Shown here: positions 9,819 through 43,523 of the stretch, piece after piece
How the letters are laid out: each line of letters opens with the position of its first letter
How positions within the stretch are numbered: position 1 is the first letter of the stretch
Origin: Candidatus Saccharimonadales bacterium
GTDB taxonomy: Bacteria; Patescibacteriota; Saccharimonadia; Saccharimonadales; DATKHC01
Length of the DNA stretch: 64,000 nucleotides
Assembly (NCBI GenBank): GCA_035510465.1
Contig: DATKHC010000001.1
Location: forward strand, 70,799 to 134,798
Direction of reading: 5' to 3'
Program-made: the position numbers and the translations under genes
The notes under the pieces: model-generated
Seen by the model: the letters and a program-made list of their open reading frames with translations, nothing else
Database searches by the model: none
Told to the model about the DNA's origin: nothing

Positions 9819-10274
9819 CTAGCCCGGTTGAGATTGTTGCTTCAACTTAGACAACCTTGGCATAAAACTTTGAGCGGCTGATGATAATCCAAGAACTTTT
9901 AGTGCGCCCAGCAATACATACAGTTCATCAATTGCGCTACTCTCAACCGTGCCACCAGATTCCAAACGACTAAAATAATACTCGACTTTATCAACTAGCC
10001 ATTTTTCTTGAGAGGGCTTCACTTCGTTTGTTTTTATGGTTAGCAAGCTAGAATGTTTGACTGGCTCCAGTGAGCGAGCCGAATGATCTCGTTTTTTTAG
10101 GTGCCCACGGTTAATTAAGCTATCAATATGAAGCGCTACGGTTGCAAGCGAGCTATAGTCGAGACCGTTTTTTACCTCACGGTAGCTAGGACTATAACCG
10201 TTGATACTAATAAACTGATCTATAAAGTCTAGTATGCGTTTTTGCTTTTTGGTGGGTCTAATATCCGTACTCAT
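9819..10274 (-). CDS. LexA-type winged-helix DNA-binding domain protein lacking the S24 peptidase domain
   Basis: The N-terminal KKQKRILDFIDQFISINGYSPSYREVKNGL...VALHIDSLINRGHLKK matches the LexA_DNA_bind pattern. The protein is only 151 aa and has no Ser/Lys peptidase motifs. Confidence 0.6.
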   Translation of the reverse strand: MSTDIRPTKKQKRILDFIDQFISINGYSPSYREVKNGLDYSSLATVALHIDSLINRGHLKKRDHSARSLEPVKHSSLLTIKTNEVKPSQEKWLVDKVEYYFSRLESGGTVESSAIDELYVLLGALKVLGLSSAAQSFMPRLSKLKQQSQPG

Positions 10275-10723
10275 GCTGATTTCCGTCTTGGGTATTTACT
10301 TGGGAAAACCCAGAACCTGTACCAAAAATAATTCCAAAATGTGAAGAACCCAGCAGAAACGAATTGGCCCAAATACGGAGTTATTCCTGCACTCTTTAAG
10401 CCTCGCACAATTAGATAATCAATCGCGAAATCAACTAAGGTTATAAATAGATATCGGCCGGTGACTTCTGTTCGGTGTTTAGCTAGTTTAGGATTATTAA
10501 ATACCCAGAAACGCTGGAGAGCGTAATTCACTATCCAACCAACAACATCGGCACCTAGCTTAGCTGGTAATAACGTAAGGTGAAGTGGTCTATAAAGTAT
10601 AAAGAAGACTAGGTAACCAGTCCAAAAGTATGCACCGCCACTAACTAAATATTCTGTTATCCGCTTAACTTCTCTGCGGTTCTTTTTTCTACCTAGCCCG
10701 AAGGGCAGTTTTTGACTTTTCAC
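10271..10723 (-). CDS. GtrA-family membrane protein (polyprenyl-phosphate-sugar flippase-like)
   Basis: 150 aa with 4 TM helices. It has the GtrA-like pattern (..YALQRFWVF.. and ..FFTFWNYFWYRFWVF). Its stop overlaps the LexA-like start (ATGA). Confidence 0.7.
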   Translation of the reverse strand: MKSQKLPFGLGRKKNRREVKRITEYLVSGGAYFWTGYLVFFILYRPLHLTLLPAKLGADVVGWIVNYALQRFWVFNNPKLAKHRTEVTGRYLFITLVDFAIDYLIVRGLKSAGITPYLGQFVSAGFFTFWNYFWYRFWVFPSKYPRRKSA

Positions 10724-12038
10724 GGGAGTTTTTTATTTGAGTTTTTTCCTCCTTTAGTATAACAGGTGAGAGAGCAATTCCTGCAAGCCCCCACCAAAGT
10801 AGGCTTAAGGTATCATCAGCCCAAGCATGAGAAACCATATTTACAAGACTAATGCCTATAAAAGTTGCAAATAAAAAGGCTGAAAGATTATCTGATCTTT
10901 TTTGCCAAAGCCTATAAGCAACAATTACATTTACGCTTAAAAACAAGACGAGACCTGCTATACCGAGCTCCTGGCCTATTTGTATATAGAAGTTTTCAGC
11001 TATCCTTGGCGGATGGTCGTTATGCTCTGAGGCAGGTCCAGCTGTCCCTGGTCCTTCGCCTAGGGGATGATCAATCACACTTTCAGCAGAGCTTTTAAGT
11101 GCATTTAACCGTTCAGAGTTAGAACTTATAGATGACCGCGAAGAACTTGACGTATGGAAGAAAACGTCCTCGGCCGTCAGGTTATGGCGTAACCCAACCA
11201 CTACCGCACCACCAACTAATACAGCGGCTACTAGGCAAGTTAAGAAAGCCTTGCGCCACTGGGGTTTTAGCCAAGATATATAAAATAGAACCGCCAAACT
11301 GACAACGACCCCAACATAGCCACTACGTGAATAGGTAAAGAACAGAGCAACTAAGCTAATAACGATTAATGCAGCTCTTAGCAACTTACTAGATTTAAGC
11401 TTAAGAGCCAGACCAGTAATCACGAGTATCAAATAAGCCCCAAATGGATCTGCACCTCTTAGGGTAGATTGAATTCTTCTATATGCATTGTTTTGATCTA
11501 CCGTGCTGTAGGCAGGTATTGTTTTAGGCCCGTAACCAAAGTGCCTTAAGAAATCAAGCGGGAGAACCAACTGCAAAAGGCCTAAGAATACTGTCACTAA
11601 TCCTGGGTAAATTATTATCTTATACCAATTTTTCCGAAGAAAATTAGTGAAGTAAGACAGTACCAAAACAACAAATAGAAAAGCGAAAAACCTGAGATCA
11701 ATTATCCAACCATCAGCGAGAGCTGAGTTATTCACTCGATCTGTCAATCTAGCCCACACCCCCAACCCTATGGTTAGTAAAGAGAACACAGCTATTAGTT
11801 GAATTAATCGGTCGCTAACTAGCCATTTTTTTAGTTTAGGTGTTTTATGAATCAGATAAAGTATAGAGGGCAACGTTAGTACAATCAAAGCTTCTTTCCA
11901 GGCTCGCCAAACATCTAGATGACCGAAGTTACTGCCAAGCCAGGTAGTTAAAAACTCGTGGAACGGTAATGCTACTAAAATAACCGCTACTAAGCCAGTT
12001 AGAATGTTTACAAGTGCTTTAGTTTTTGATTGTTCCAT
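10689..12038 (-). CDS. O-antigen ligase/polymerase-like (Wzy_C domain) polytopic membrane protein
   Basis: 449 aa with about 11 TM helices. It carries the FTYSRSGYVGVVV motif and an extracytoplasmic loop with conserved His/Arg, typical of the Wzy_C/WaaL family. Confidence 0.72.
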   Translation of the reverse strand: MEQSKTKALVNILTGLVAVILVALPFHEFLTTWLGSNFGHLDVWRAWKEALIVLTLPSILYLIHKTPKLKKWLVSDRLIQLIAVFSLLTIGLGVWARLTDRVNNSALADGWIIDLRFFAFLFVVLVLSYFTNFLRKNWYKIIIYPGLVTVFLGLLQLVLPLDFLRHFGYGPKTIPAYSTVDQNNAYRRIQSTLRGADPFGAYLILVITGLALKLKSSKLLRAALIVISLVALFFTYSRSGYVGVVVSLAVLFYISWLKPQWRKAFLTCLVAAVLVGGAVVVGLRHNLTAEDVFFHTSSSSRSSISSNSERLNALKSSAESVIDHPLGEGPGTAGPASEHNDHPPRIAENFYIQIGQELGIAGLVLFLSVNVIVAYRLWQKRSDNLSAFLFATFIGISLVNMVSHAWADDTLSLLWWGLAGIALSPVILKEEKTQIKNSREKSKTALRAR

Positions 12039-12062
12039 AAGTGTTACAATCTAGTATAGCTG

Positions 12063-13505
12063 ATGAAAAGTAATGCTTCTTTGCTTTATGATTGTATTTT
12101 AGTAATTGGCGATTTCTTATCGTTAGTCCTGGCTTTTGCCGTAGCCTATGTTCTAAGGGTTTCTCTGTCGCATCAGCACTTAGCATCACCTATTAAGTCT
12201 AGTAGTTATATAGAAGTCTTTTTACTCCTGCTTCCTTTTTGGATCCTAATTTTCGCCCTGCTTGGACTTTACAATAACAGTATTTACGAAAAACGTTTTT
12301 CCGAAGGAGGACGGCTAGCAATTGGGTCTCTAATTGGTCTTATGTTTGTTATTAGCTTTAGTTATGGTTTTAACAAACCTATTTTTCCTGCTCACTTAGT
12401 CGCAGTTTATGGCTTACTGTTGACGTTTCTCTTCTTAATTATATTCCGCAATCTGGCTCGCTATATACGGGGGACGTTATTCTCTTACGGTTTTGGGATC
12501 ACTAATGTTCTAATCGTTGGTGACACAAGCCTAACACATGAGCTAGTTGATTCGCTGTTTGATTATCGTCTATCTGGTTATCGGATCATTGGAATAGTTG
12601 GACCTAAAGAACACAGACATGAAAAATTTGGGCCTGTACCGCTCTTTGAATCATTTGAATTCGCCATAAATAAGCTTGGTCCCAATGTAATTCACAGCAT
12701 CGTCCAAACTCAGCTTTATTCGCAAACTAAAGACAATAACGAAATATTAAATTACGCTCAGTCAAACCACGTTGCCTACCGTTTTATTCCAGGTAATGGG
12801 GAATTGTTTGTAGGTAACATCAAAGTTGAGTTATTTCGCTCAACCATACCAGTTATAGCAGTTCATCAGACCCCTTTGGTCGGATGGGGTAGGATAGTTA
12901 AACGTCTGTTTGATGTGATCTTTTCTGTTCTAGCAATTTTAATTCTATCTCCAGTCTTTGTGTTAATTGCTCTTCTGATTTTTATAATTAGTCCTGGGCC
13001 AGTTATATTCAGCGATACTCGAGTAACCAGATTTAATAATCGAGTTAAGGTATACAAATTCAGATCCATGTGGCGTAAATTTAGCGGACGAGATCCCGTT
13101 GAATCCTTCCATAAACTGGCACGGCCTGACTTGGCAAAAAAATATGAACTAGCTCAGAAAATAGATAAAGATCCAAGAATCACTCCAATTGGTAAAATTC
13201 TTAGAAGATTTAGTCTTGATGAATTGCCACAGTTATTTAATGTTTTGAAAGGCGACATCAGCCTTGTAGGGCCCAGAGCGGTGATTGAAAGAGAGTTAAA
13301 ATACTACGAAGATAAAAGCTCCATGCTACTGAGTGTCAAAACGGGAATTACCGGATTGGCTCAAGTAAGCGGAAGAAGTAATTTAGATTACTGGGAACGA
13401 GCCAGGATTGATTTGTACTATGTCCAAAACTGGAGCTTTTGGATGGACATTACGATACTTTTCAAGACAATTCGAGTTATCTTTAACCGTAGTGGAGCCA
13501 GATGA
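12063..13505 (+). CDS. polyprenyl glycosylphosphotransferase (WbaP/CpsE-type initiating sugar transferase)
   Basis: 480 aa. An N-terminal 4-TM region is followed by a C-terminal Bac_transf domain (KRLFDVIFS..., VYKFRSM, DELPQLFNVLKGDISLVGPR). Confidence 0.9.
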   Translation: MKSNASLLYDCILVIGDFLSLVLAFAVAYVLRVSLSHQHLASPIKSSSYIEVFLLLLPFWILIFALLGLYNNSIYEKRFSEGGRLAIGSLIGLMFVISFSYGFNKPIFPAHLVAVYGLLLTFLFLIIFRNLARYIRGTLFSYGFGITNVLIVGDTSLTHELVDSLFDYRLSGYRIIGIVGPKEHRHEKFGPVPLFESFEFAINKLGPNVIHSIVQTQLYSQTKDNNEILNYAQSNHVAYRFIPGNGELFVGNIKVELFRSTIPVIAVHQTPLVGWGRIVKRLFDVIFSVLAILILSPVFVLIALLIFIISPGPVIFSDTRVTRFNNRVKVYKFRSMWRKFSGRDPVESFHKLARPDLAKKYELAQKIDKDPRITPIGKILRRFSLDELPQLFNVLKGDISLVGPRAVIERELKYYEDKSSMLLSVKTGITGLAQVSGRSNLDYWERARIDLYYVQNWSFWMDITILFKTIRVIFNRSGAR

Positions 13506-14623
13506 ACCGGGAACTAGGTAAGCTTAATGTCGCTATCGTCTGTGACTGGCTAACTAGCATAGGTGGAGCAGAGAGAGTAGTTTTTGCTCTTCACCAAATG
13601 TTTCCAACGGCTCCTATCTATACCTCTCAATACAATCCAAAAGCTATCAACTGGTCAAGTAATGCAGATGTTAGAATGTCAGGTTTTTTGCAGCGATTGC
13701 CTGTTGTACTCCGAAAATTCTTGCCAGCCTTCAGGGCTTGGTACTTTTCTCATTTAGATCTTTCTAGCTACGATTTGGTCATATCTTCGAGTGGAGCAGA
13801 GGCAAAGTCTGTCAGAACCGGCCCTCTAACTATCCATGTATGTTACTGCCACGCACCGACACATTATTACTGGATGCGTTATGAGTCATATATCAAGAAT
13901 CCTGGTTTTCAGAAATTTGATTGGTTAGCTAAATTTGGACTCAGGCTTTTGGTAAAACCAATGCGTCGATGGGATAAAAAAGTTGCTCAGAGACCCGACT
14001 ACATGATTGCCAACTCATCTTTTACACGATCAGAAATTAAAAAATATTATGGCAGAGACTCGGTGATCATCCATCCGCCAATTGATATTGACCGCTTTAG
14101 CCCGAAGGTTGAAAAAAAACGGTTCGGGTTTTTGGTCGTTGGGAGACAAACACCCTACAAACGTATAGATTTAGCTGTCCTGGCTTGTACTCAGCTCAAC
14201 TTGCCACTTACGGTTGTCGGGGATGGACCAGAAAACCATGCACTTCATAATTTAGCAGGTCCAACTGTCAAATTTGTAAGCGGAGCAGACGATGAGCGTG
14301 TTGCTGAACATATGCAATCTGCTGAGGCATTAATTTTCCCAACTGACCGAGAAGACTTTGGAATTACACCAGTTGAGGCATTAGCTGCAGGTACTCCAGT
14401 AATAGCATACGGTGGAGGGGGTGTGCTTGACTATCTAGTTGACGGAAAAACCGGCAGCTTGTTTCAAGACCTGAGCGTGGCTTCGTTGGCAAATTGTCTA
14501 GAAACATTTAATCCTGGACTTTTCAAAGTCCAGGATCTGAAAGATACAGCCGCGAAATTCTCTGCTCAAAAATTCGAAAAGAGGATGAGTGATTTCGTAA
14601 ACAATGTTATTTCAAAAACGTAA
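13502..14623 (+). CDS. glycosyltransferase family 4 (GT-B)
   Basis: The C-terminal EDFGITPVEALAAGTPVIAYGGGG...DGKTG motif matches the GT4/GT1 E-x7-E region. 4-nt overlap with the upstream gene. Confidence 0.85.
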   Translation: MNRELGKLNVAIVCDWLTSIGGAERVVFALHQMFPTAPIYTSQYNPKAINWSSNADVRMSGFLQRLPVVLRKFLPAFRAWYFSHLDLSSYDLVISSSGAEAKSVRTGPLTIHVCYCHAPTHYYWMRYESYIKNPGFQKFDWLAKFGLRLLVKPMRRWDKKVAQRPDYMIANSSFTRSEIKKYYGRDSVIIHPPIDIDRFSPKVEKKRFGFLVVGRQTPYKRIDLAVLACTQLNLPLTVVGDGPENHALHNLAGPTVKFVSGADDERVAEHMQSAEALIFPTDREDFGITPVEALAAGTPVIAYGGGGVLDYLVDGKTGSLFQDLSVASLANCLETFNPGLFKVQDLKDTAAKFSAQKFEKRMSDFVNNVISKT

Positions 14624-14689
14624 AATTTTAGAGTTTAGCTTAGAGGAGTTAACTTAATCAATTAATGATTATTGTTTATACTTGATTGG

Positions 14690-15685
14690 ATGAAGGTCTT
14701 GATTACCGGAGGAGCAGGTTTTATTGGCTCAAATTTTGTCCATTACATAGCCAAACATAGACCAAGTTGGCAGATAACAGTCTTTGATAATCTGACTTAC
14801 GCCGGAAATCTAAGTAACTTGATTGGTTTAGGTAAAAGTAAATACACATTTATTAAAGGTGATATTTGTGATGAAGAGTCAATAAATAATGCTGTTGGAT
14901 CGAATGATCTAGTTGTTCACTTTGCTGCTGAATCGCACGTCGATAACTCAATTAACTCACCTTGGCCATTTGCTAACACTAACTTGATTGGAACTTATTG
15001 GGTCTTGGAAGCAGTACGCAAAAATAAAAAACGTCTTCATCATATATCTACAGATGAAGTCTTTGGAGATTTGAGACCGAATGACCCTAAATTTAGCGAG
15101 AATAGTCCGTACAAACCATCTAGCCCTTACTCTGCTACAAAAGCCGGTTCTGACCATCTTGTTCGTGCCTGGACTAAAAGTTTTAATATTACCGCAACCA
15201 TTAGCAATTGTTCGAATAACTATGGCCCCCGACAACATCCTGAAAAGTTAATCCCAAGACATGTAACTGAAATCATCGAAGGCAGAGAACCGAAACTTTA
15301 CGGCGAAGGAACTAACATAAGAGACTGGATACATGTCGATGATCATAATTCTGCAGTTTTAGCCATAATTGAAAAAGGCAAGAATGGCGAGACTTACTTA
15401 ATTGGCAATAATCAAGAACAAACCAACAAACAAGTACTTGATGCGATTTTAGATATTATGGGCAACGACGCAAATTACTTTGAGTTCGTAGAAGACAGGC
15501 CCGGACACGACCGACGTTATGCAATTGATTCAAGTAAAATTAAAGAGGAATTAGATTGGGAGCCAAAGTACAAAAACTTCAGAGACGGATTAGTGGACAC
15601 TATTAATTGGTACAAGGATAATGAACAGTGGTGGAAACCTCAAAAAGCTAATACCGAAGAGAAATATAAAAAACTGGGCAGATAA
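14690..15685 (+). CDS. rfbB: dTDP-glucose 4,6-dehydratase
   Basis: MKVLITGGAGFIGSNF, the catalytic YSATKAGSDHL (YxxxK) and near full-length RmlB-like sequence. The ATG at 14690 is preferred over the TTG at 14672. Confidence 0.95.
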   Translation: MKVLITGGAGFIGSNFVHYIAKHRPSWQITVFDNLTYAGNLSNLIGLGKSKYTFIKGDICDEESINNAVGSNDLVVHFAAESHVDNSINSPWPFANTNLIGTYWVLEAVRKNKKRLHHISTDEVFGDLRPNDPKFSENSPYKPSSPYSATKAGSDHLVRAWTKSFNITATISNCSNNYGPRQHPEKLIPRHVTEIIEGREPKLYGEGTNIRDWIHVDDHNSAVLAIIEKGKNGETYLIGNNQEQTNKQVLDAILDIMGNDANYFEFVEDRPGHDRRYAIDSSKIKEELDWEPKYKNFRDGLVDTINWYKDNEQWWKPQKANTEEKYKKLGR

Positions 15686-15686
15686 T

Positions 15687-16262
15687 ATGGCAACTTTACC
15701 AACAACTGAATTTATAAAAAATGAGACGGCTATACAGGACTTGATTATTTTTGATGTTAATTTTGTGGGTGATGAACGTGGCTATTATCAAGAAAACTAT
15801 CAAAAAGCGAAATTAGTAAAAGCTGGTATGTCTGACAGCTTTAATGTAGTTCAAAACAATATATCCTATAACAAGTTGAGTGGAGTAACTAGAGGATTCC
15901 ATGCAGAACCATGGGATAAATACATTTCTGTTATAACAGGTAAGGTATTTGCGGCATATGTTGACTTAAGAAAAGGCAAAACTTTTGGCAAAGTTATAAC
16001 TATAGAGATTACACCAAATAAATCAGTCTTTTTACCAAAGGGAGTAGCGAATTCATTTCAAACTCTAGTTCCTGATACATATTATCTATATAGCGTTAAT
16101 GATTTTTGGAGTAGTGAGAGTTACGAGAAATACATTTTCGTAAATCTAGCTGACACCGACTTAAGTGTAGCTTGGCCAATACCTTTAAGTAAGGCCATAC
16201 TAAGTGATCGAGACAAAAAGCACCCTAACCTTTCAACAATATCACCTATGGAGAGCCTATGA
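15687..16262 (+). CDS. rfbC: dTDP-4-dehydrorhamnose 3,5-epimerase-like cupin
   Basis: RGFHAEPWDKY...GKVFAAYVDLRKG matches the RmlC core. The ATG at 15687 lies 1 nt after the rfbB stop. It is embedded in the rfbB-C-D-A operon. Confidence 0.85.
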   Translation: MATLPTTEFIKNETAIQDLIIFDVNFVGDERGYYQENYQKAKLVKAGMSDSFNVVQNNISYNKLSGVTRGFHAEPWDKYISVITGKVFAAYVDLRKGKTFGKVITIEITPNKSVFLPKGVANSFQTLVPDTYYLYSVNDFWSSESYEKYIFVNLADTDLSVAWPIPLSKAILSDRDKKHPNLSTISPMESL

Positions 16263-17110
16263 AGGAATCGGAAATATTAGTAATTGGCGCCGGTGGCCAA
16301 CTTGGTAGCGTCTTAACTACTAAATATCCAAACGCGCGGTCAGTCGATATTCAACAGCTAAATATATCTGATTTTGAAAGTATCTCTTCATACAATTGGA
16401 AAAACTCAAAAATAGTTATTAATGCTGCCGCATATACTAATGTTGACGGCGCAGAGACAGAAGATGGACGAATAGTCGCCTGGCAATCAAATGCGGTAGC
16501 CATTGCTAATCTCGTAATGATATGTGAAGAAAATGATTTAACATTGGTACATATTTCTACCGATTATGTATTTGACGGTAAGAGAAAAGTTCACGATGAA
16601 GAAGAGCCATTTAGCCCCCTAGGTGTATACGGGCAAACAAAAGCTGCTGGTGATATTGTTCTAAGCACGCACAAAAAAAAATATATTTTGCGAACATCTT
16701 GGGTTATAGGTGAGGGCAACAATTTTATAAGAACTATGATAAATATAGGAAAGAAAGGTATCGATCCCGTGGTTGTATCAGATCAAATAGGCCGACTCAC
16801 ATTTACTGACGAATTAGTAAGGGCAATAGATTATTTATTATCGAATGAATGCCCGTATGGTACTTATAATGTAACTAATGACGGCGAATCTGTTTCTTGG
16901 GCTGAAATAACAACTCAGGTGTTCAAGTTGGCCAATCTTAAGAACAAAGTAAAGGAAATATCGACTCACGATTACTATAAAGATAAGCCTGAAGCAGCTA
17001 AGCGCCCATTAAATAGCACGCTTGACTTAACTAAGCTTCACTCAACCGGTTTTAAGTCTAAATCATGGTCAACTAGCTTAGAAAGCTATGTAGAAAAGGA
17101 ACTACAATGA
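16259..17110 (+). CDS. rfbD: dTDP-4-dehydrorhamnose reductase
   Basis: VIGAGGQLG Rossmann motif, YGQTKAAGD (YxxxK) and RmlD-like length of 283 aa. ATGA overlap with rfbC. Confidence 0.9.
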   Translation: MKESEILVIGAGGQLGSVLTTKYPNARSVDIQQLNISDFESISSYNWKNSKIVINAAAYTNVDGAETEDGRIVAWQSNAVAIANLVMICEENDLTLVHISTDYVFDGKRKVHDEEEPFSPLGVYGQTKAAGDIVLSTHKKKYILRTSWVIGEGNNFIRTMINIGKKGIDPVVVSDQIGRLTFTDELVRAIDYLLSNECPYGTYNVTNDGESVSWAEITTQVFKLANLKNKVKEISTHDYYKDKPEAAKRPLNSTLDLTKLHSTGFKSKSWSTSLESYVEKELQ

Positions 17111-17970
17111 GAGGAATCATACTTGCTGGTGGTTCGGGTACTAGACTATATCCAATTACATTAGCGATCAGTAAACAACTTGCTCCAATTTACGATAAGC
17201 CGATGATTTATTATCCCTTAAGCACCCTCTTAAGTGCAGGAATACGTGAAATACTAATAATCTCCACTCCGCTGGATTTACCGAGATTCGAGCAATTGTT
17301 GGGAGACGGAAGTCAAATTGGATGTAAGTTTAGCTATATAGAACAAGATAAGCCAAGAGGTCTAGCAGAAGCATTTATACTTGGAGCTGACTTTATTGAG
17401 AACGATAGCGTAGCCATGATATTAGGCGATAATATTTTTTACGGTTCGAGCTTTAATCAAAAATTAAAACAATACACAAACCCCAGCGGAGGAATAATTT
17501 TTGGTTATCAGGTAGAGGACCCTAAACGTTATGGAGTAGTAGAGTTTGATAAAAATAATGATGTAGTATCAATAGAAGAGAAACCAAGTAAACCTAAATC
17601 AAATTACGCAATACCTGGCCTTTACTTTTTTGATAATGATGTAGTGAGCATAGCAAAAACGGTAAAACCAAGCGTTCGCGGAGAAACTGAAATCACTGAT
17701 ATCCACAATTTTTACTTGGCAAACGGCAGGCTCAAAGTAGCACTGCTTGACAGAGGCGTAGCCTGGCTTGATACGGGTACCTTTGAGTCAATGAATCAAG
17801 CATCACAATTTGTGTCAATTATTGAAGCAAGACAAGGATTAAAAATCGGTTGTATTGAAGAGGTAGCGTGGCAACAAGGATTTATCAATAACGACCAGCT
17901 CGAAAAGCTAGCGCTAAAGCACAATAAATCTGGGTATGGACAATACTTATTAGGGATACTGAGCGCTTAG
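17107..17970 (+). CDS. rfbA: glucose-1-phosphate thymidylyltransferase
   Basis: MRGIILAGGSGTRLYPIT, with the RmlA signature conserved throughout. 287 aa. Confidence 0.95.
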   Translation: MRGIILAGGSGTRLYPITLAISKQLAPIYDKPMIYYPLSTLLSAGIREILIISTPLDLPRFEQLLGDGSQIGCKFSYIEQDKPRGLAEAFILGADFIENDSVAMILGDNIFYGSSFNQKLKQYTNPSGGIIFGYQVEDPKRYGVVEFDKNNDVVSIEEKPSKPKSNYAIPGLYFFDNDVVSIAKTVKPSVRGETEITDIHNFYLANGRLKVALLDRGVAWLDTGTFESMNQASQFVSIIEARQGLKIGCIEEVAWQQGFINNDQLEKLALKHNKSGYGQYLLGILSA

Positions 17971-17987
17971 ATTATTTATGTAATAAA

Positions 17988-19985: not shown

Positions 19986-20021
19986 TCCTTGATGAGCTTG
20001 GCAAATTTATATATCCTGGTT

Positions 20022-21056: not shown

Positions 21057-21080
21057 TTAAATTATAATACCCCATATCTA

Positions 21081-21884: not shown

Positions 21885-21886
21885 TT

Positions 21887-23071: not shown

Positions 23072-23075
23072 ATAT

Positions 23076-28400: not shown

Positions 28401-28402
28401 TT

Positions 28403-28993: not shown

Positions 28994-29219
28994 TCTTATG
29001 TACTATTTTAACTATCCGTTTTTATTTGAGATTTCTTTTATAACGTAATCTATCAATTATGTTTATAAACCTAGTGCTTGTCAAGGAAAGACTCTCTATT
29101 AACAAGAAGTAATTGAATCTTTTTCTAAGCAAATTTTGCCAAACATTTACAGTAACTTGATATGCTGAATATTTTAGGTGCTAGAATATACCTTAATGGT
29201 AACGACTGACAAGGGTCGA

Positions 29220-30518: not shown

Positions 30519-30522
30519 TTTA

Positions 30523-34541: not shown

Positions 34542-34585
34542 TGAGGTTTCCGATCTGTCTAATGTATATCTTAAAGACCTCTCGT

Positions 34586-35284
34586 CTATTGTCTGGCAAA
34601 AACTCCTAGAACGTTTTTACCAAACATTTTCTTAAATATACGCTCCGATAGTGCACTGACAGGAAATAAGTATTTATCAAATATACCTATGGTTTTCGGG
34701 TTCAGGTTACCGCTTCCACCAATAATCCGATAGACTATTGCCAACATGAAACCCACTGGGTCACAGTATTTTATACGCTTGAGCTCCAGGTTTGTTTGGT
34801 TGGCTAGTTTTTTTAGGTCTTTTATTCGATATCTTCGAAAATGCTCGGCCTTTACGTCTAGGTTTGAAAAAATACTCATAAATGCAGGTACGTAAATAAT
34901 TATCACGCCTTCTTTACTTAAACAATCTTTTAATGAAGCAAGAATTTTTTTATCATCTTTTATGTGCTCTAGCACGTTTAAGGAATAGATAACATCGTAT
35001 TTTGTCTTTACGTGCTTTATATCCTCATGTGTCTTGTATTTCTTTTGTCTCAATATTTTTGCTTGAACTTTACCTTTCTCAACGCAATCAATTTTATGGC
35101 CAAGTTCTCTAAGCATATCTGCGTATGTTCCAATGCCGGCTCCAAAATCTAAAATCTTAACCTTTTTATTTTTTAACTTACTAATTTCTCGTTGAATAAA
35201 ATCTCGTTGATAACGATTATAGTTAACCGCATCTTTCATGGTTTCGAGATTATCTTGCGCGGTGTAGAAGTATTCTTTAGCCAA
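34586..35284 (-). CDS. class I SAM-dependent methyltransferase
   Basis: Motif I ILDFGAGIGTYAD and post-I/II motifs (VIYSLNVLEHI). 232 aa. Confidence 0.8.
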   Translation of the reverse strand: MAKEYFYTAQDNLETMKDAVNYNRYQRDFIQREISKLKNKKVKILDFGAGIGTYADMLRELGHKIDCVEKGKVQAKILRQKKYKTHEDIKHVKTKYDVIYSLNVLEHIKDDKKILASLKDCLSKEGVIIIYVPAFMSIFSNLDVKAEHFRRYRIKDLKKLANQTNLELKRIKYCDPVGFMLAIVYRIIGGSGNLNPKTIGIFDKYLFPVSALSERIFKKMFGKNVLGVFARQ

Positions 35285-35548: not shown

Positions 35549-36766
35549 GTGGCTACAGGTTCTGTTAACACCAAAGACGAGCTTTTTGATATTTGTATTG
35601 TGGGTGGTTGTGGGCATGTGGGACTTCCACTGGGATTAGCTTTTGCTGGTCAAAGTAAAAATGTAGTCCTTTATGACATAAACGAAAAAAGCATTTATGA
35701 AGTTAATTCGGGTAAAATGCCCTTTAAAGAAGAAGATTCCGAGCCAATATTAAACAAAGTTTTAAAATTAGGTAAACTAAAAGCTACGAACGCACCACAA
35801 GTAATTAGTGACTCCAGGATTGTTATATTAGTTATAGGAACTCCCGTAGACGAACACCTGAATCCGAAAGTAAGCGAAATTATTCATGCAATTAAAGAAA
35901 TTGAAGATTATTTAACCGATGATCAGCTTCTCGTAATGAGAAGCACGCTATATCCGGGAGTTACTGATAAAGTTAAGGCATATCTCACTAAGATTGGCAA
36001 GAATATCTCTGTGGCTTTTTGCCCAGAACGAATTATAGAAGGTAAGGCATTAACTGAATTGTATGAGCTTCCTCAAATAGTTGCCGGCTGTACTCCAAAG
36101 GCTACCGAAAAAGCTTCAGATCTTTTCAAGGTTTTAACTAATAAAATAATAGTCACTGAACCAATTGAGGCAGAATTAGCCAAGCTATTTACTAATACTT
36201 GGCGTTATATTAACTTTGCCATATCTAACCAGTTTTACATGATAGCCAATAGTCATGGGTTAGACTTTTACAATATCTATAATGCCATGACTGAAGATTA
36301 TCCTAGACTAAAAGCATTCGCAAAAGCCGGGTTAGCAGCTGGTCCTTGTTTATTCAAAGACACCATGCAGTTGTCTTCATTTAGTGGTAATAACTTCTTT
36401 TTAGGCCATTCTGCTATGTTGGTAAATGAAGGTTTGCCAGATTTTATCGTGAGCTCAATGAAAAAAAATCATGATTTAAGTAAAAGCACAGTAGCTATTC
36501 TTGGGATGGCTTTTAAGGGTAATAATGACGATCCACGTGAATCCCTTTCGTACAAACTAAAGAAAAAACTAGAAGTTGAAGCAGATGTTGTTCTTTGTCA
36601 CGATCCATATATAAACGACTCGAGATTTTCAACCATGGAAGAAATAAGAGAAAAAGCCGATATTATTGTGCTTGCTACTCCGCACACTGAATACAACACC
36701 GAGAACTGGGACGATAGAGTGTTAGTAGATATGTGGAATTTCTATGGCCAAGGGGGGCTGGTATAG
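35549..36766 (+). CDS. nucleotide-sugar 6-dehydrogenase (UDP-glucose/GDP-mannose dehydrogenase family)
   Basis: Rossmann motif ICIVGGCGHVGLPLG, catalytic Cys context AGPCLFKDT and a C-terminal UDP-binding domain. GTG start with AAAGGAGGA 6 nt upstream. Confidence 0.85.
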   Translation: MATGSVNTKDELFDICIVGGCGHVGLPLGLAFAGQSKNVVLYDINEKSIYEVNSGKMPFKEEDSEPILNKVLKLGKLKATNAPQVISDSRIVILVIGTPVDEHLNPKVSEIIHAIKEIEDYLTDDQLLVMRSTLYPGVTDKVKAYLTKIGKNISVAFCPERIIEGKALTELYELPQIVAGCTPKATEKASDLFKVLTNKIIVTEPIEAELAKLFTNTWRYINFAISNQFYMIANSHGLDFYNIYNAMTEDYPRLKAFAKAGLAAGPCLFKDTMQLSSFSGNNFFLGHSAMLVNEGLPDFIVSSMKKNHDLSKSTVAILGMAFKGNNDDPRESLSYKLKKKLEVEADVVLCHDPYINDSRFSTMEEIREKADIIVLATPHTEYNTENWDDRVLVDMWNFYGQGGLV

Positions 36767-36767
36767 G

Positions 36768-37445
36768 TTATTTTCGTAATGGATTCTGTTTGGTCTTTTG
36801 TCCGATTACAAAAGTTTGCTTACCCATTAAGAACTGGATGGGCGCCAGTTTCAAATATAATTTTATAAAAATTGGTATTGCAGGTATTTTTGAATTAGTA
36901 GTATATGGTAAAAACCTGACTTTCTTGTAGTTAATCTTAAAGTTAGTCAAGGAGAAAGCTTCGTATAAACTTTTTTCGGTTAGCGGTAGTGTGTGGTCAA
37001 TATAGTCCCAGTACTTATTGCCAACAAGTCTTATATTTGGTTGCAAAATAAGAACTTTTCCGCCAGGTTTAAGCACTCGTCGTATTTCTTTCAGTGTTTC
37101 AATGAGTTCGTCTTTACTTTCCAGGTGTTCAAAAAAATTACTTACAAAGATTTTATCGACAGAATCAGTCAGTGACTTCGGTAAAGCCGTGCTTAATGTT
37201 TTATAAACTATTACGTCTTTATTTGCGATTTTTTTTGTATATGCATTTATGTCTACTGCGATTTTCGTCTTACATTTTATGTTATTAATAAATTCACAGT
37301 AGCCCGCTCCTAAATCAAGTACAGTGTCTTTTTTGTCTATATACTTTTGGAAATAGTCGTGACAGAGTATCTTCCACATAATATTTCTGTTTTGTATATT
37401 TTTGTCAAAACGATCAGCATATATAGATAAAACGTAGTCTCTCAT
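36768..37445 (-). CDS. class I SAM-dependent methyltransferase
   Basis: Motif I VLDLGAGYCEF, then KIFVSNFFEHL and LKPGGKVLI. Confidence 0.75.
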   Translation of the reverse strand: MRDYVLSIYADRFDKNIQNRNIMWKILCHDYFQKYIDKKDTVLDLGAGYCEFINNIKCKTKIAVDINAYTKKIANKDVIVYKTLSTALPKSLTDSVDKIFVSNFFEHLESKDELIETLKEIRRVLKPGGKVLILQPNIRLVGNKYWDYIDHTLPLTEKSLYEAFSLTNFKINYKKVRFLPYTTNSKIPAIPIFIKLYLKLAPIQFLMGKQTFVIGQKTKQNPLRK

Positions 37446-39837: not shown

Positions 39838-39914
39838 TTCTTAATAGAATTTGCAAACAATATAGAGCCCCAACCGCTTAATGAACTTTTGAAAAAAACT
39901 TCTTTGATTGTAAC

Positions 39915-41021
39915 ATGAGGACTATGATGATTGTTGTTGATGCTAGAGAGCTAAGAACTAGTTCGGGTAGGTATATTGAACGATTGCTTAACTATCTACA
40001 AGACATAGATAAGACAAATGACTATCGCGTTCTCTTAAAACCTGCTGATATGGATGGTTGGAACCCTAAAAACCCAAAATTCACCAAATTATTTTGCCAT
40101 TTTAAAGAGTTTACTTTTTCCGAACAAATAGGTTTATTGGCGCAGATTAAAAGGATTAAGCCTGATTTAGTTCATTTTGCCTTTGTCCAGCAACCAATTT
40201 TATACCGGGGTAAGGTGGTAACCACGATGCATGATCTGACTACTGCACGTTTCCGTAATCCATCAAAAAACTTCTTGGTTTTTGCATTTAAACAACTGGT
40301 CTATAGACGTGTTAATAAAATAGTTGCGAGAAAATCGGACGCAATTATAACGCCTACTCAGTACACGAAAGAGGATGTAGCTAAATTTGCTCGCATAAAT
40401 AGTAGAAAGATAACCGTGACTTACGAAGCTGCGGACAGAATCGAAGGCATACCAAAACCAATTGAACAATTAGTTAATCAATCTTTTATCTTGTACATTG
40501 GGCGATCCGTGCCCCATAAAAACCTGGTACGTTTAATGGCCTCTTTTGTTCTACTTAAACAGAAACACCCTGAACTTAAACTGGTTCTAGCAGGGAAAAA
40601 AGACGCGCTCTACAGACGCCTAGAAAAAAGGGCTGAAGATATGGGCGCAGGCGACACTGTCTTTACGGGTTTTGTTTCTGAGGAAGAACTTAAGTGGTTA
40701 TACAAAAACACTGAGGCTTACGTTTTCCCGAGTTTATCCGAAGGCTTTGGTTTGCCCGGTTTGGAAGCTATGATCGAAGGCGCACCAGTGGTTTCAAGCC
40801 ACGCCACGTCTCTCCCAGAAGTATACGGTGAGGCAGCTATATATTTTGATCCTTACGACATAACTGATATGGCAGCTAAAATTAACCAAGTATTAACAAA
40901 TAAGAAGCTGAGAAGCCAGTTAGTCAAAAACGGTCGCAAACAAGCGGCTAAGTATTCCTGGCGAAGAACAGCTGAGCAAACCTTATCTGTCTATAATTCT
41001 GTTCTTGAGCAACAAGACTAG
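39915..41021 (+). CDS. glycosyltransferase family 4 (GT-B)
   Basis: SLSEGFGLPGLEAMIEGAPVVSS...LPEVYGEAAIYFDP matches the GT4 signature. Confidence 0.85.
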   Translation: MRTMMIVVDARELRTSSGRYIERLLNYLQDIDKTNDYRVLLKPADMDGWNPKNPKFTKLFCHFKEFTFSEQIGLLAQIKRIKPDLVHFAFVQQPILYRGKVVTTMHDLTTARFRNPSKNFLVFAFKQLVYRRVNKIVARKSDAIITPTQYTKEDVAKFARINSRKITVTYEAADRIEGIPKPIEQLVNQSFILYIGRSVPHKNLVRLMASFVLLKQKHPELKLVLAGKKDALYRRLEKRAEDMGAGDTVFTGFVSEEELKWLYKNTEAYVFPSLSEGFGLPGLEAMIEGAPVVSSHATSLPEVYGEAAIYFDPYDITDMAAKINQVLTNKKLRSQLVKNGRKQAAKYSWRRTAEQTLSVYNSVLEQQD

Positions 41022-42435: not shown

Positions 42436-42539
42436 ACAGGATCCTATCTGTGACTTATCCTATGATATCATGTCGGGTTCTCTATCTGTTGGGGCAAAAA
42501 CACGTAAAGCTAAGTGTTTCTAATAAGTTTCGTGGGATT

Positions 42540-43523
42540 TTAATCAATTTCATCCATTTCCTTGATCCCAGCAGATTTTTTGTAGTCAATGATGTATAAC
42601 GGACGATCTTTCGTTTGAGTTTGAATACTAGAAATGTATAGCGATAAAACAGCTTGTGACATTAATACGATCCCCACTAAAAAGGTAATAAAAATGCCAA
42701 GCATAGCAGTACCAGTGAATTTCCACCTAAGTGGGTCGGATAATATTAGCTGTTCAATAATTACACTTAGACCAAGAAAAAAGGCTAGAAGAGTAATGGC
42801 AACACCCAATATACCAAATATATATAGTGGTTTAGGGGTTAGTGATATGAAACTATTTTTAGCCAGCTGAACGAGTTTTCGATAAGAATAATTTGGCTCA
42901 CCGTCAACTCTTTGCTTAGGTTCAAAATAAATATAGCTTCTTTTAAAACCTAGCCAGTCGATTAAGCCCCGAGTTAGTCGATCGTTTTCATGCAGCTTAA
43001 TAAACTCTTTTTGAACCACTCTGTCGATTAAACGAAAGTCAGTAGAGCCGGGCAAAAGCTGCTGATATGTCATCTTGTTAAATAGCGTATAAAAAATTCC
43101 AGAATTCATTTTTTTTAGGACACTTGGGTGTCCATTGTTAGTTCTAACCCCAACTACAACCTGAGAGCCTGCTCTCCAAGCTTTAAGGAAGTTGTCTATT
43201 AGACCTACTGGATGTTGGCCATCGCCATCAATAGATAAAATAGCCTGTCCGCTAGCCCGGGCTATGCCAGCCGAAAGGGCGTACTCTTTGCCAAAGTTGC
43301 GTGAAAAAGCAACTAATTTAACCCTTGGGTCTTGCTTATTCCATCTTTTGACTAATCCCGGTGTTTCATCAGTACTACCATCGTCGCAGTAGATAATTTC
43401 GTATGAATTGCTAACTGATTTTTGAAGTGAGACTACCAGGCTTTTGTGAAATTGCTCAAGCCCAGTACTCTCATTAAATACCGGTACTACTACGGATAAA
43501 ACTGTGTCTGATGATTTGGCCAT
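42540..43523 (-). CDS. GtrB/ArnC-like GT2: polyprenyl-phosphate glycosyltransferase with two C-terminal TM helices
   Basis: LSVVVPVFNE...IYCDDGSTDET and SIDGDGQHP (DxD), plus C-terminal TMs (LYIFGILGVAITLLAFFLGL and GTAMLGIFITFLVGIVLM). 327 aa. Confidence 0.8.
   Translation of the reverse strand: MAKSSDTVLSVVVPVFNESTGLEQFHKSLVVSLQKSVSNSYEIIYCDDGSTDETPGLVKRWNKQDPRVKLVAFSRNFGKEYALSAGIARASGQAILSIDGDGQHPVGLIDNFLKAWRAGSQVVVGVRTNNGHPSVLKKMNSGIFYTLFNKMTYQQLLPGSTDFRLIDRVVQKEFIKLHENDRLTRGLIDWLGFKRSYIYFEPKQRVDGEPNYSYRKLVQLAKNSFISLTPKPLYIFGILGVAITLLAFFLGLSVIIEQLILSDPLRWKFTGTAMLGIFITFLVGIVLMSQAVLSLYISSIQTQTKDRPLYIIDYKKSAGIKEMDEID

Follow-up and report, generated by a model that had tools for sequence, protein, structure and literature searches.

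A predicted rhamnose-containing surface-glycan locus in a Candidatus Saccharimonadales genome and its candidate new families of membrane glycosyltransferases

The slg cluster of Geobacillus stearothermophilus NRS 2004/3a encodes WsaP, WsaC-F, Wzm/Wzt, RmlABCD and WsaB, and the S-layer glycan is made by a single ABC-dependent pathway in which WsaP is a WbaP homologue, WsaE provides the methyl cap and WsaB is a Wzy_C protein (PMC2943079). The rgp, gac, cwps and epa loci for the cell-wall polysaccharides rich in rhamnose (Rha-CWPS) of streptococci, lactococci and enterococci contain rml genes, an ABC exporter, mosaic variable regions and multicomponent decoration systems (GT-A enzyme, small membrane protein and GT-C enzyme), and tagO and lcp commonly lie outside them (PMC9574508). 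In ABC-dependent O-antigen export of the E. coli O8/O9a and Aquifex type, where WbdD supplies the cap, modified chain termini are recognised by the carbohydrate-binding domain of Wzt, as described in PMC9445017. In lipid-phosphate-sugar glycosylation systems of three or four components (GtrA/B/V, ArnC/ArnT, mycobacterial PpgS/Rv3632/Rv3779 and lactococcal WpsA/B/J), the genes for short GT2 polyprenyl-phosphate-sugar synthases, GtrA proteins and GT-C enzymes are grouped, and the same grouping occurs at the locus described here. Our analysis suggests that the locus belongs to a system type that is already known and that it includes several undescribed families of predicted membrane glycosyltransferases.

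The window (the whole 64-kb stretch that was analysed) comes from a Candidatus Saccharimonadales MAG, and each ORF was scanned with Pfam and NCBIfam (Table 1). A preliminary description had proposed one large envelope-glycan locus at 10271-43523. The scans confirmed that this surface-glycan locus is real, with a predicted rhamnose-containing product, and recovered its named components at their coordinates. Glycan genes that pass HMM checks make up 24 of the 31 consecutive ORFs, far above the chance expectation: a WbaP-type phosphoglycosyltransferase (PGT), Wzy_C, rmlBCDA (listed earlier as rfbBCDA), Wzm, Wzt, six GT2 (starts 20022, 24020, 25723, 33828, 38703 and 42540), two GT4 (13502 and 39915), three methyltransferases (23076, 34586 and 36768), a sugar 6-dehydrogenase, an epimerase, two GtrA proteins and a DUF2142 protein. 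The failure of glycosyltransferase and transporter calls that had been considered did not occur. Some counts changed: GT2/GT4 enzymes and SAM methyltransferases are present, but eight and three are backed by HMMs instead of nine and four. Among the four to five large polytopic proteins proposed, four stand besides Wzy_C (proteins A, D, E and F; starts 17988, 29178, 30508 and 31971). The 553-aa protein B (26739-28400) does not, since it has only an N-terminal signal/anchor segment and is predicted to be secreted.

Table 1 Features of the glycan locus and adjoining genes (positions in the window).
Feature	Position	Strand	Basis
LexA-type HTH protein (DNA-binding domain only)	9819..10274	-	PF01726, 45.7 bits
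GtrA-family small membrane protein	10271..10723	-	PF04138, 56.6 bits
Wzy_C (O-antigen-ligase / O-oligosaccharyltransferase family), about 10 TM	10689..12038	-	PF04932, 68 bits (cutoff 31.7)
Large WbaP/WcaJ-architecture polyprenyl-phosphate hexose-1-phosphate transferase (PGT)	12063..13505	+	Bac_transf (204 bits), CoA_binding_3
GT4 glycosyltransferase	13502..14623	+	Glycos_transf_1, Glyco_transf_4
rmlB, rmlC, rmlD, rmlA (dTDP-L-rhamnose synthesis)	14672..17970	+	Pfam, NCBIfam
Protein A, 665 aa, ~9 N-terminal TM and ~290-aa C-terminal domain	17988..19985	-	
GT2, weakly rhamnosyltransferase-like	20022..21056	-	PF00535
Wzm permease	21081-21884	+	ABC2_membrane
Wzt ATPase with C-terminal carbohydrate-binding domain	21887-23071	+	ABC_tran; Wzt_C, 64 bits (cutoff 30)
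SAM methyltransferase	23076..24023	+	Methyltransf_23 and related models
Two GT2s, one of 568 aa (GT2 domain at the N-terminus, C-terminal half unassigned) and one of 339 aa	24020..26742	+	PF00535
Proteins B and C	26739..28993	-	
Protein D, predicted GT-C-fold glycosyltransferase	29178..30518	+	AF2, Foldseek
Protein E, DUF2142 polytopic membrane protein	30508..31974	+	PF09913, 195 bits
Protein F, 596 aa, ~13 TM	31971..33761	-	
Short soluble GT2 (33828) and SAM methyltransferase (34586)	33828..35284	-	Variable module
NDP-sugar 6-dehydrogenase	35549..36766	+	TIGR03026, 289 bits (cutoff 190)
SAM methyltransferase	36768..37445	-	Methyltransf_11, Methyltransf_23
SDR 4-epimerase-like enzyme	37697-38716	+	Pfam/NCBIfam
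GT2, short soluble polyprenyl-phosphate sugar synthase	start 38703	+	HMM
GtrA	39355-39837	-	HMM
GT4 glycosyltransferase	39915..41021	+	Glycos_transf_1, 121 bits
GtrB/ArnC/PgfS-type polyprenyl-phosphate glycosyltransferase	42540..43523	-	PF00535, 96 bits

Two housekeeping genes, jag/khpB (41018-41473) and yidC (41473-42435), fall within the proposed region. Setting them aside leaves an uninterrupted glycan block at 10271-41021 (~30.8 kb), 97% of which is coding when its ORF lengths are added up, with the GtrB-like GT2 at 42540-43523 as an outlier. This ~31-kb locus lies beside the replication origin of a Saccharibacterium with a small genome. Since the closed chromosome of a relative is 1.10 Mb, it would occupy ~3% of such a genome, in agreement with the reduced-genome host assumed earlier. 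Two assemblies made independently match the window at 100% identity (7107-27970 and 10656-27970). Among relatives, the locus is mosaic in composition.

The likeness of the locus to the slg cluster is one of part list: both have a WbaP-homologous initiator together with Wzm/Wzt, rmlABCD and a Wzy_C-family transferase, a methyltransferase positioned for terminal capping, and a GC content below that of the flanks (here 0.373 versus 0.423). Unlike the slg cluster, the methyltransferase is a separate protein and not a domain of the trifunctional WsaE, an S-layer target gene was not identified at the locus, many more extracytoplasmic decoration components are present, and the host is a Patescibacterium. 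The earlier likening to Rha-CWPS loci holds for the rml/ABC/GtrA/GT-A/GT-C layout, the DUF2142 (WpsI/WpsJ family) protein and the mosaic variable regions; an RgpF-domain protein occurs in one relative (L009), and no RgpF domain was found in the present window. The likeness fails for the initiator, which is a hexose-1-phosphate transferase of the WbaP type and not TagO/RgpG (PMC9574508), and for the transfer step: no transfer enzyme other than Wzy_C is encoded in the window, and HMM scans of all ORFs in its 64 kb detected no LCP protein, Wzx/MOP flippase or Wzz/PCP protein. Features shared with O8/O9a and Aquifex-type export (PMC9445017) are the C-terminal carbohydrate-binding domain of Wzt, a neighbouring methyltransferase whose C-terminus is extended by a helical segment, and a Wzy_C (WaaL-family) enzyme for a later step. 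Unlike those systems, the locus has no kinase domain, its capping enzyme is a candidate, initiation is not by WecA, and the host is presumably a monoderm with no lipid A-core acceptor.

The PGT scored 367 bits with TIGR03025 (cutoff 295.6) and 320 bits with the WbaP model, below its cutoff of 403, and five TM segments are predicted. The gene of the adjacent GT4, a candidate adaptor-sugar transferase, shares 4 bp with the PGT gene, and relatives keep this pair. RmlB (460 bits, cutoff 365) and RmlA (454, cutoff 361) exceed the NCBIfam equivalog cutoffs; RmlD (203, cutoff 224) and RmlC (102, cutoff 156) fall just under them and passed Pfam. Residues 338-362 of the Wzy_C protein form the motif EHNDHPPRIAENFYIQIGQELGIAG, and a sequence search found no relative of solved structure; Wzy_C ligase and Wzy polymerase functions are not separated by sequence alone. 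Its gene overlaps that of GtrA, and in relatives too the two genes are neighbours. Wzy_C-GtrA is also divergent from WbaP-GT4 in metagenomic relatives (39-52% identity), with rml beyond in L093.

The best PDB match of Wzt is the Aquifex Wzt (8dku, E 1.9e-66), and it covers residues 7-374, including the carbohydrate-binding domain. The methyltransferase gene separated from wzt by a 4-bp gap encodes a protein whose C-terminus is a helical tail that closes with SWRITKPLR and a basic tail. An SW[RK]xTxPLR tail recurs on Wzt-adjacent methyltransferases of relatives, one of which (in L003) is fused to a GT4. Gene position and analogy suggest the methyltransferase at 23076 as a candidate chain-terminating capping enzyme. 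The GT2 at 20022 also adjoins Wzm in L006 (59% identity) and matched the TIGR01556 rhamnosyltransferase model at 73 bits, below the cutoff. The 568-aa and 339-aa GT2s are candidate chain-elongating transferases and are kept as a pair in L003, L006 and L009; the 339-aa protein has two predicted C-terminal TM segments and a weak TIGR01556 match. All rhamnosyltransferase assignments in the locus are sub-threshold.

Protein D has no Pfam hit, and none of at least 196 homologues carries a Pfam domain; at least 536 relatives were found in genomes. D47, N73-E74-H75-R76, W150 and R328 are invariant. The AF2 model (pLDDT 95.1, pTM 0.92) gave a Foldseek search of the PDB in which the top 25 matches were all GT-C enzymes (probability 0.99-1.0), both protein glycosyltransferases (AglB, STT3, PglB, DPY19 and PMT) and lipid/glycan-directed enzymes (ArnT, AftA/B, EmbB and ALG12). 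On this model, protein D is a GT-C enzyme of an undescribed family. It forms a conserved cassette with the dehydrogenase, epimerase, GT2 (38703) and GtrA (39355). These four genes are linked to D in Planctomycete loci and, among 26 loci of the Saccharibacteria type, in 15-18, and the order D-dehydrogenase-epimerase-GT2-GtrA recurs among relatives. A dehydrogenase and an epimerase supply the modified sugar in the Arn pathway and in Rhizobium Und-P-GalA systems, and such a pair would do so here too. The nearest relatives of the dehydrogenase are UDP-ManNAc/HexNAc dehydrogenases (best PDB matches 4r16, E 2.9e-56, and Cap5O), and it shows 69-78% identity in orthologous Saccharibacteria loci. Identities in L003 and L009 are 89-90% for the epimerase, 71-73% for the GT2 and 43-47% for GtrA.

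Unlike in the known lipid-phosphate-sugar systems, the families of proteins D, A and F have no Pfam model or detectable sequence similarity to known GT-C partners. Protein A, without a sequence match in Pfam, NCBIfam, PHROGs or the PDB, belongs to a family of 434 cluster representatives, one of which (P0137) is a GtrA-A fusion; it adjoins the ABC module in L006 and is a candidate GT-C-like transferase. Protein F has 10 homologues only, two with a weak DUF6541 match. Its AF2 model (pLDDT 72) gave AftA as the best Foldseek match, with a probability of 0.94-0.97 but E 0.085-0.14 and a TM-score of 0.28-0.35, versus a probability of only 0.03-0.06 for MOP/MATE transporters, and we tentatively regard it as GT-C-like. 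DUF2142 is the Pfam family of the lactococcal GT-C enzymes WpsI/WpsJ; protein E of this family has no orthologue in L003, L006 or L009, and ~29% identical matches only were found, in 3 of 79 D-family loci. Proteins B (N-terminal domain containing Cys; several ~60-aa repeats that are FG-GAP-like) and C (196 aa; TM anchor, S/T-rich linker and beta-rich domain) had no match in family searches. The pair adjoins D in relatives, the L006 homologue of B has FG-GAP hits, and the two are possibly acceptor or glycan-binding proteins. The GT2 at 33828 resembles AglJ, dolichyl-P-hexose and PpgS polyprenyl-phosphate sugar synthases, and its module with a methyltransferase has no orthologue in L003, L006 or L009. 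A methyltransferase like that at 36768 is near D in 11 of 79 loci. NCBIfam matches of the GT4 at 39915 are sub-threshold (e.g. MSMEG_0565, glycolipid-anchor GT4s). The GT2 at 42540, located between rnpA and yidC, has two predicted C-terminal TM segments and matches PgfS (214 bits) and ArnC (121 bits) over its full length, both under equivalog cutoffs.

With modest confidence, we favour a single coherent system whose core is most simply one ABC-dependent pathway. RmlABCD, assigned at the family level, would provide dTDP-L-rhamnose, and the sole WbaP-type PGT would prime polyprenyl phosphate with a hexose-1-phosphate, the sugar being predicted. The adjacent GT4 would add an adaptor sugar, and cytoplasmic elongation of a rhamnose-containing chain may fall to the GT2s at 20022, 24020 and 25723. 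If E. coli O8/O9a and the S-layer glycan of Geobacillus are a guide, the non-reducing end is probably capped by the methyltransferase whose gene comes right after wzt, and the capped chain would be bound by the Wzt carbohydrate-binding domain and exported via Wzm/Wzt. Wzy_C could then take the chain off its lipid carrier and attach it to an acceptor, which could be a surface protein (as with WsaB and PglL) or a membrane glycolipid. Outside the membrane, several polyprenyl-phosphate-sugar systems may decorate the glycan or a surface protein. In one, the dehydrogenase and epimerase would form a hexuronic or N-acetylhexosaminuronic nucleotide sugar, GT2 38703 with GtrA would load the uronic sugar on polyprenyl phosphate, and D would transfer it. 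GT2 33828 may pair with the DUF2142 (WpsI/WpsJ-type) enzyme and GT2 42540 with protein F and/or protein A, and the other two methyltransferases may supply O-methyl groups.

The preliminary description had read the mixture of parts as two assembly logics. In such a case WbaP, GT4, Wzy_C and GtrA would make a short lipid-linked unit and polymerise or transfer it, in a Wzy-like route or as protein O-glycosylation. For an ABC-exported rhamnan, a TagO/WecA-type enzyme would do the priming and LCP would attach the polymer to peptidoglycan, with both genes elsewhere, as in streptococcal/lactococcal Rha-CWPS, where this placement is common (PMC9574508). The two gene sets do sit apart, each in its own block of divergent operons (12038/12063 and 21056/21081), and Wzy_C-GtrA-LexA is kept as a unit with WbaP-GT4, and the ABC module has other partners in L003 and L006. 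However, the argument from hallmarks is weak: a WbaP-type PGT with Wzy_C does not mark a separate Wzy route, Wzx/MOP and Wzz are absent from the window, and the polytopic proteins of undescribed families look more like GT-C enzymes than like flippases or polymerases. A PGT, a Wzm/Wzt pair and a Wzy_C each occur exactly once in the window; rml shares an operon with WbaP-GT4, so that the supply of rhamnose is tied to the WbaP-type initiator, and Geobacillus runs the same mixture as one pathway (PMC2943079). Two separate glycans are unlikely in our estimation.

A system mainly for protein glycosylation appears improbable. In it, Wzy_C would O-link the exported rhamnan to a surface/S-layer-like protein or pilins, and the secreted proteins B and C encoded nearby would be direct targets of GT-C enzymes, D above all, in the manner of PMT and AglB with theirs. 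The part list is that of an S-layer glycan cluster, and there is a prediction of pilin O-glycosylation in Saccharibacteria; among 26 loci of the Saccharibacteria type, B adjoins D in 11, with a C-like gene next in L003 and L009. No S-layer protein or recognised target adjoins the locus, however. The resemblance of D to AglB, STT3, PglB, DPY19 and PMT is offset by its lipid/glycan-directed matches, and a target role for B and C, despite the S/T-rich linker of C, is speculation because neither has a detectable family. GT2 42540 is closest to PgfS, from a protein-glycosylation system, but this match is not specific because GtrB-like enzymes are all mutually similar. A pathway for teichoic acid only, or another unrelated pathway, is highly improbable: the Wzt ATPase domain is also TagH/TarH-like, but HMM scans of the locus found no CDP-glycerol/CDP-ribitol synthesis genes or TagB/TagF-type polymerase, the Wzt carbohydrate-binding domain is of the O-antigen type, and a full rml operon accompanies many GT2/GT4 genes.

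The LexA-type HTH gene is the last of the Wzy_C-GtrA operon and overlaps the GtrA gene by 4 bp. Its product is a candidate regulator, and the arrangement downstream of Wzy_C-GtrA is kept in six metagenomic relatives.

The ORFs of the window were listed, and each ORF between 9.8 and 45.7 kb was scanned against Pfam and NCBIfam. The scans bear out the preliminary description of this region as an envelope-glycan gene cluster, most of which was accurate. The parts it named are present, with eight GT2/GT4 glycosyltransferases instead of nine and three methyltransferases instead of four, and protein B does not belong among the large polytopic proteins, its sole hydrophobic segment being N-terminal. 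The span originally assigned, 10271-43523, takes in the housekeeping genes jag and yidC; in the block 10271-41021, coding sequence makes up 97% (from summed ORF lengths) and the GC content is 0.373, versus 0.423 in the rest of the window. As the right-hand genes are jag, yidC, rnpA, and dnaA, the locus abuts the replication-origin gene set. A full-length GtrB/ArnC/PgfS-type GT2 (327 aa, two C-terminal TM segments) is inserted between rnpA and yidC, within an otherwise housekeeping rnpA-yidC-jag string. The proposal of a reduced genome agrees with the closed chromosome of a relative (1,099,440 bp), and the locus of ~31 kb corresponds to close to 3% of such a ~1 Mb genome.

Layout of the surface-glycan block and its flanking genes (window positions).
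Feature	Position	Strand	Remark
LexA-type HTH protein	9819-10274	minus	
GtrA	10271-10723	minus	
Wzy_C protein	10689-12038	minus	ligase/polymerase family
Large WbaP/WcaJ-architecture phosphoglycosyltransferase	12063-13505	plus	TIGR03025 above cutoff, WbaP model below cutoff
GT4, then rmlB, rmlC, rmlD, rmlA	13502-17970	plus	
A	17988-19985	minus	665-aa membrane protein without annotation
GT2	20022-21056	minus	
Wzm, Wzt with Wzt_C domain, methyltransferase, 568-aa GT2, 339-aa GT2	21081-26742		divergent from the GT2 at 20022
B and C	26739-28993	minus	B, 553 aa, secreted; C, 196 aa, anchored
D	29178-30518		446-aa membrane protein without annotation
E	30508-31974		DUF2142 protein, 195 bits (Pfam)
F	31971-33761	minus	596-aa membrane protein without annotation
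Short GT2 and methyltransferase	33828-35284	minus	
NDP-sugar dehydrogenase	35549-36766		
Methyltransferase	36768-37445	minus	
Epimerase and short GT2	37697-39413		
GtrA	39355-39837	minus	
GT4	39915-41021		
jag, yidC, GtrB-like GT2 (42540-43523), rnpA, then divergent dnaA	right of the GT4		

Over 7107-27970 and 10656-27970, the window is matched at 100% identity by two independent public assemblies. Both independent Logan contigs carrying the left half stop at exactly 27970, within gene B; heterogeneity among strains or a break in the assembly may account for this shared end. Three window proteins are deposited as exact copies under the name hypothetical protein (VMR34_00545, VMR34_00590, and VMR34_00600), and public gene calls shorten A to 634 aa, rmlB to 331 aa, and rmlC to 191 aa. 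When the longest ORFs are used, the divergent operon junctions at 12038-12063 and 21056-21081 comprise only 24 bp each, which means that the promoters sit within coding sequence or that the actual start codons are located further downstream. Rfam and tRNA scans of the window returned nothing, and a search of genome contigs with the DUF2142 protein E found no relative in a collection that holds no representative of this species.

The export machinery is that of the ABC-dependent pathway, consisting of Wzm (ABC2_membrane, 59 bits) and Wzt (ABC_tran, 80 bits) with a C-terminal carbohydrate-binding domain (Wzt_C, 64 bits against a cutoff of 30.4). Wzt aligns to Aquifex Wzt (PDB 8dku) over residues 7-374, including the carbohydrate-binding domain, with an E-value of 1.9e-66. 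A methyltransferase gene follows directly 3' of wzt after a 4-bp gap, and its product has a C-terminal tail of ~75 residues, probably helical and charged as judged from its sequence, that ends in SWRITKPLR and basic residues. The motif S-W-[RK]-x-T-x-P-L-R is also found at the C-terminus of methyltransferases adjoining Wzt in relatives, one of which is a methyltransferase-GT4 fusion. The module as a whole (23900-24020 in the window; also in loci L003, L006, L025, L038, L060, and L070) consists of a heptad-like helix, this motif, and a basic tail. Its carriers are methyltransferases and glycosyltransferases beside Wzt, in Saccharibacteria as well as in alphaproteobacterial loci.

The preliminary description had read the WbaP-type phosphoglycosyltransferase and the Wzy_C protein, placed beside the ABC exporter, as two assembly logics. 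The same components occur in the S-layer glycan cluster of Geobacillus stearothermophilus, which contains the WbaP homologue WsaP, Wzm/Wzt, rmlABCD, and the Wzy_C-domain transferase WsaB (PMC2943079). There they constitute one ABC-dependent pathway, in which the WbaP homologue beside Wzm/Wzt was called "rather unexpected", and a methyltransferase adds a 2-O-methyl cap that Wzt is believed to recognise (PMC2943079). Given this precedent, finding a phosphoglycosyltransferase and Wzy_C next to an ABC exporter is not in itself a sign of two assembly routes. The window likewise unites a WbaP-homologous initiator, Wzm/Wzt, rml genes, and a single Wzy_C protein, a class in which ligase and polymerase are not separable by sequence; sequence searches of solved structures with this protein gave no significant match. 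No Polysacc_synt/MOP match indicative of a Wzx flippase was found among the window ORFs of at least 400 aa, and the window contains no match to Wzz/PCP chain-length regulators or to LCP proteins (LytR_cpsA_psr).

The locus resembles the Geobacillus pathway in its initiator and in Wzy_C transfer, and differs from it in that no S-layer-type protein was recognised nearby. The proposed resemblance to loci for cell-wall polysaccharides rich in rhamnose (Rha-CWPS) holds for rmlABCD with an RgpC/D-type ABC exporter, for decoration by GT-A, GtrA, and GT-C proteins, and for DUF2142; it does not extend to TagO initiation and LCP proteins within the window. The sole phosphoglycosyltransferase in the window is of the WbaP type and not of the TagO/RgpG type that initiates with GlcNAc-1-P. 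For rhamnosyltransferases of the RgpA/B/F kind, the window offers sub-threshold TIGR01556 matches only, and an RgpF domain, absent from the window, was found in one relative (L009). The locus thus appears to work like a hybrid of the two systems. Since these Rha-CWPS features are missing from the window and no glycoprotein target was identified, it is counted as a member of neither. A teichoic-acid-only reading was rejected, the locus having no polyol-phosphate genes.

The membrane proteins A, D, E, and F were examined because these polytopic unknowns were the sole possible hiding places for Wzx or Wzy. Profile-profile comparisons found no mutual relationship, so they form four separate families. 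Homologues of protein D number at least 196, all lacking a Pfam domain, and sequence searches of solved structures with D gave no significant match. In an alignment of 94 sequences, D47, N73-E74-H75-R76, W150, and R328 are invariant, and the motifs are [FL]WxQHNEHR and Qx[ED]NWxWGW. The conserved acidic residue D47 sits eight residues past TM1 (helix 19-39), in what would be the first extracytoplasmic loop if the basic N-terminus sets the orientation. AlphaFold2 on this alignment predicted a polytopic fold with a pLDDT of 95.1 and a pTM of 0.92. When the PDB was searched with Foldseek, the top 25 matches were all GT-C proteins (probability 0.99-1.0, E-value 2e-4 to 3e-2, TMq 0.30-0.51), with AglB, ArnT, STT3, DPY19, ALG12, AftA/B, PglB, and EmbB among them. 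On the predicted model, D is a GT-C enzyme and neither a polymerase nor a flippase, and its candidacy as the missing Wzy or Wzx was rejected on these fold matches.

The other three proteins are assigned with varying firmness. For F, only 10 homologues were found and the predicted model is of medium quality (pLDDT 72). Its best fold matches are to the GT-C enzyme AftA (probability 0.94-0.97), but with E-values of 0.085-0.14 and low TM-scores; the probability for MOP/MATE transporters is only 0.03-0.06. F is therefore tentatively assigned to GT-C, and its identity as the missing Wzx or Wzy is disfavoured. Protein E belongs to DUF2142, where Pfam also places the lactococcal GT-C enzymes WpsI and WpsJ as well as polytopic proteins encoded in S. 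thermophilus rgp loci. Protein A matches no family library; a full HMMER scan gave 434 cluster representatives, and a Pfam domain was detected in one of 56 scanned members. In this member, P0137, a GtrA domain (6-138) is naturally fused to the N-terminus of the A domain (152-786), which connects A with lipid-phosphate-sugar glycosylation. Searches of solved structures by sequence gave no significant match to A, B, or F.

The genes around D were counted within 10 kb of it in 79 genome loci with a D homologue, 26 of which are of the Saccharibacteria type. In these 26 loci, D is accompanied by the dehydrogenase (17/26), the epimerase (17/26), a short GT2 of the type at 38703 (18/26), GtrA (15/26), and rmlA (11/26). 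The usual order is D-dehydrogenase-epimerase-GT2-GtrA-rmlA, with the dehydrogenase start ~100 bp from D. Planctomycete loci retain D-GT2-epimerase-dehydrogenase at 50-73% identity, and the epimerase is 89-90% identical between the window and two relatives. The nearest proteins to the dehydrogenase are UDP-ManNAc/HexNAc dehydrogenases, those to the epimerase are UDP-hexose and UDP-GlcA 4-epimerases, and both short GT2s match polyprenyl-/dolichyl-phosphate sugar synthases (AglJ, PpgS, ArnC, and PgfS). With three GT2s resembling polyprenyl-phosphate-sugar synthases, two GtrA proteins, DUF2142, and the GT-C-fold D, the window has the complement of a side-chain system of GT-A, small membrane protein, and GT-C. 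Relatives of D number at least 536 in species-representative genomes of many phyla, with Saccharibacteria, Solirubrobacteraceae, Planctomycetes, Verrucomicrobia, Nitrospirota, Rhizobium, and Paenibacillus among the taxa. A distant D-like domain in Rhizobium tumorigenes adjoins GtrA and a UbiA/DprE1/DprE2-like set, which we take to be a lipid-sugar pathway of the decaprenyl-phospho-arabinose type. This context, together with the linkage to the GT2 synthase and GtrA, suggests that D may use a lipid-phosphate-linked sugar donor.

Protein B is representative of secreted proteins of ~550-630 aa with FG-GAP-like repeats, and adjoins D in 11 of the 26 Saccharibacteria-type loci. In the window, L003, and L009 its neighbour is C, a small, S/T-rich, anchored protein; in L006 that position is taken by a 190-aa gene. 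Neither B nor C matched any family library searched, and A, B, and C had no match in PHROGs. A resemblance of B to the neighbouring lysozyme/CHAP protein was not supported by BLASTP.

Other parts of the locus are conserved to different degrees. The divergent arrangement of GT4-WbaP and Wzy_C-GtrA-LexA-like genes is kept in metagenomic relatives (Wzy_C 39-52% identical) wherever the contigs reach, adjoins the same housekeeping genes, and in L093 has rml genes beyond the GT4. In L006 the core GT2-Wzm-Wzt-methyltransferase-GT2-GT2 reappears, accompanied by A, and L003 repeats the run GT2-GT2-B-C-D-F. No orthologue of E, the GT2 at 33828, or the methyltransferase at 34586 was present in L003, L006, or L009, and in the rest of the 79 D-family loci their matches are only distant (25-29% identity), so that one module of the locus is variable.

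The most economical reading, to which we give somewhat better than an even chance, is a single ABC-dependent assembly line with Wzy_C transfer and extracytoplasmic decoration. A cytoplasmic chain would be built by RmlABCD, the phosphoglycosyltransferase, a GT4, and three GT2s, capped by the methyltransferase in a presumed capping role, exported by Wzm/Wzt, and moved by Wzy_C to an acceptor. Two or three extracytoplasmic decoration systems would act on top; among these, the dehydrogenase-epimerase-GT2-GtrA-D cassette has the best support and would attach an acidic sugar. What is established for the parts of this line is family or fold membership and conserved linkage; the sugars, the order of the glycosyltransferases, methyltransferase capping, the acceptor, and the pairing of synthases with GT-C enzymes are putative assignments. 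The main alternative is that two glycans are made, in line with the two logics first proposed, with TagO, LCP, and the flippase encoded outside the 64-kb window. These genes do often lie outside the locus in Rha-CWPS organisms (PMC9574508), and the window itself, with a single phosphoglycosyltransferase, exporter, and Wzy_C protein, shows no Pfam-recognisable Wzx/MOP, Wzz, or LCP; we consider two glycans unlikely, and the two assembly logics are probably a misreading of a known single-pathway architecture. Less probable still is a variant centred on protein glycosylation, which is compatible with the S-layer glycan precedent, the similarity of D to oligosaccharyltransferases, and the conserved secreted proteins B and C adjoining D.

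A further-reaching reading is possible although doubtful as a whole. Saccharimonadales, presumed to be monoderm, would carry an O-antigen-like glycan that is WbaP-primed, methyl-capped, ABC-exported, and ligated by a WaaL/PglL-family protein to a non-LPS acceptor such as a surface protein or membrane glycolipid. Its diversification would come from at least three undescribed GT-C-type families. Among them, D would define a cross-phylum cassette, made up of NDP-sugar dehydrogenase, 4-epimerase, polyprenyl-phosphate-sugar synthase, GtrA, and GT-C, through which an acidic sugar would be attached on the outer side of the membrane.

To our knowledge, almost nothing is known of the surface chemistry of Saccharibacteria, which live attached to host bacteria. 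The literature searched yielded no description of their glycan loci, and glycosylation in this group is described there as unexplored. In Southlakia, Tn-seq indicated that predicted EPS/polysaccharide-synthesis genes are important for growth on the host (PMC10633639). The present locus provides an inventory of parts, concrete and testable, for a surface glycan of Saccharimonadales, and its conserved core with variable GT-C modules would fit a role in host or phage recognition. What it adds is the set of previously undescribed families, A, D, and F, above all the cross-phylum D cassette; D represents a widespread GT-C family lacking a Pfam model, has a conserved sugar-supply cassette, and could be annotated across hundreds of genomes. 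We regard the locus as useful groundwork for CPR surface biology and for annotation of a new GT-C family, and not as a categorically new system.

Further genes stand out on both flanks. On the left, the neighbours at 7363-9776 encode a soluble protein of 551 aa, whose C-terminus is Cys-rich and zinc-ribbon-like, and a 230-aa anchored Ser-rich protein, the latter with no match in PHROGs. Both are conserved, have no family assignment, and in some relatives keep synteny with the Wzy_C operon. Within 44356-60127, on the right of dnaA, a probable dnaN (46001-47116), and recF, a Gram-positive-type type IV secretion-like cluster occupies the minus strand. It encodes a Big_5 protein, a wall hydrolase (Phage_lysozyme2+CHAP), a TraG/VirB4-like ATPase, a PrgI-like protein, and two large proteins (893 and 990 aa) without a Pfam match. 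In Southlakia, the origin-proximal type IV secretion genes (SEML1_0006-0019) are essential (PMC10633639).
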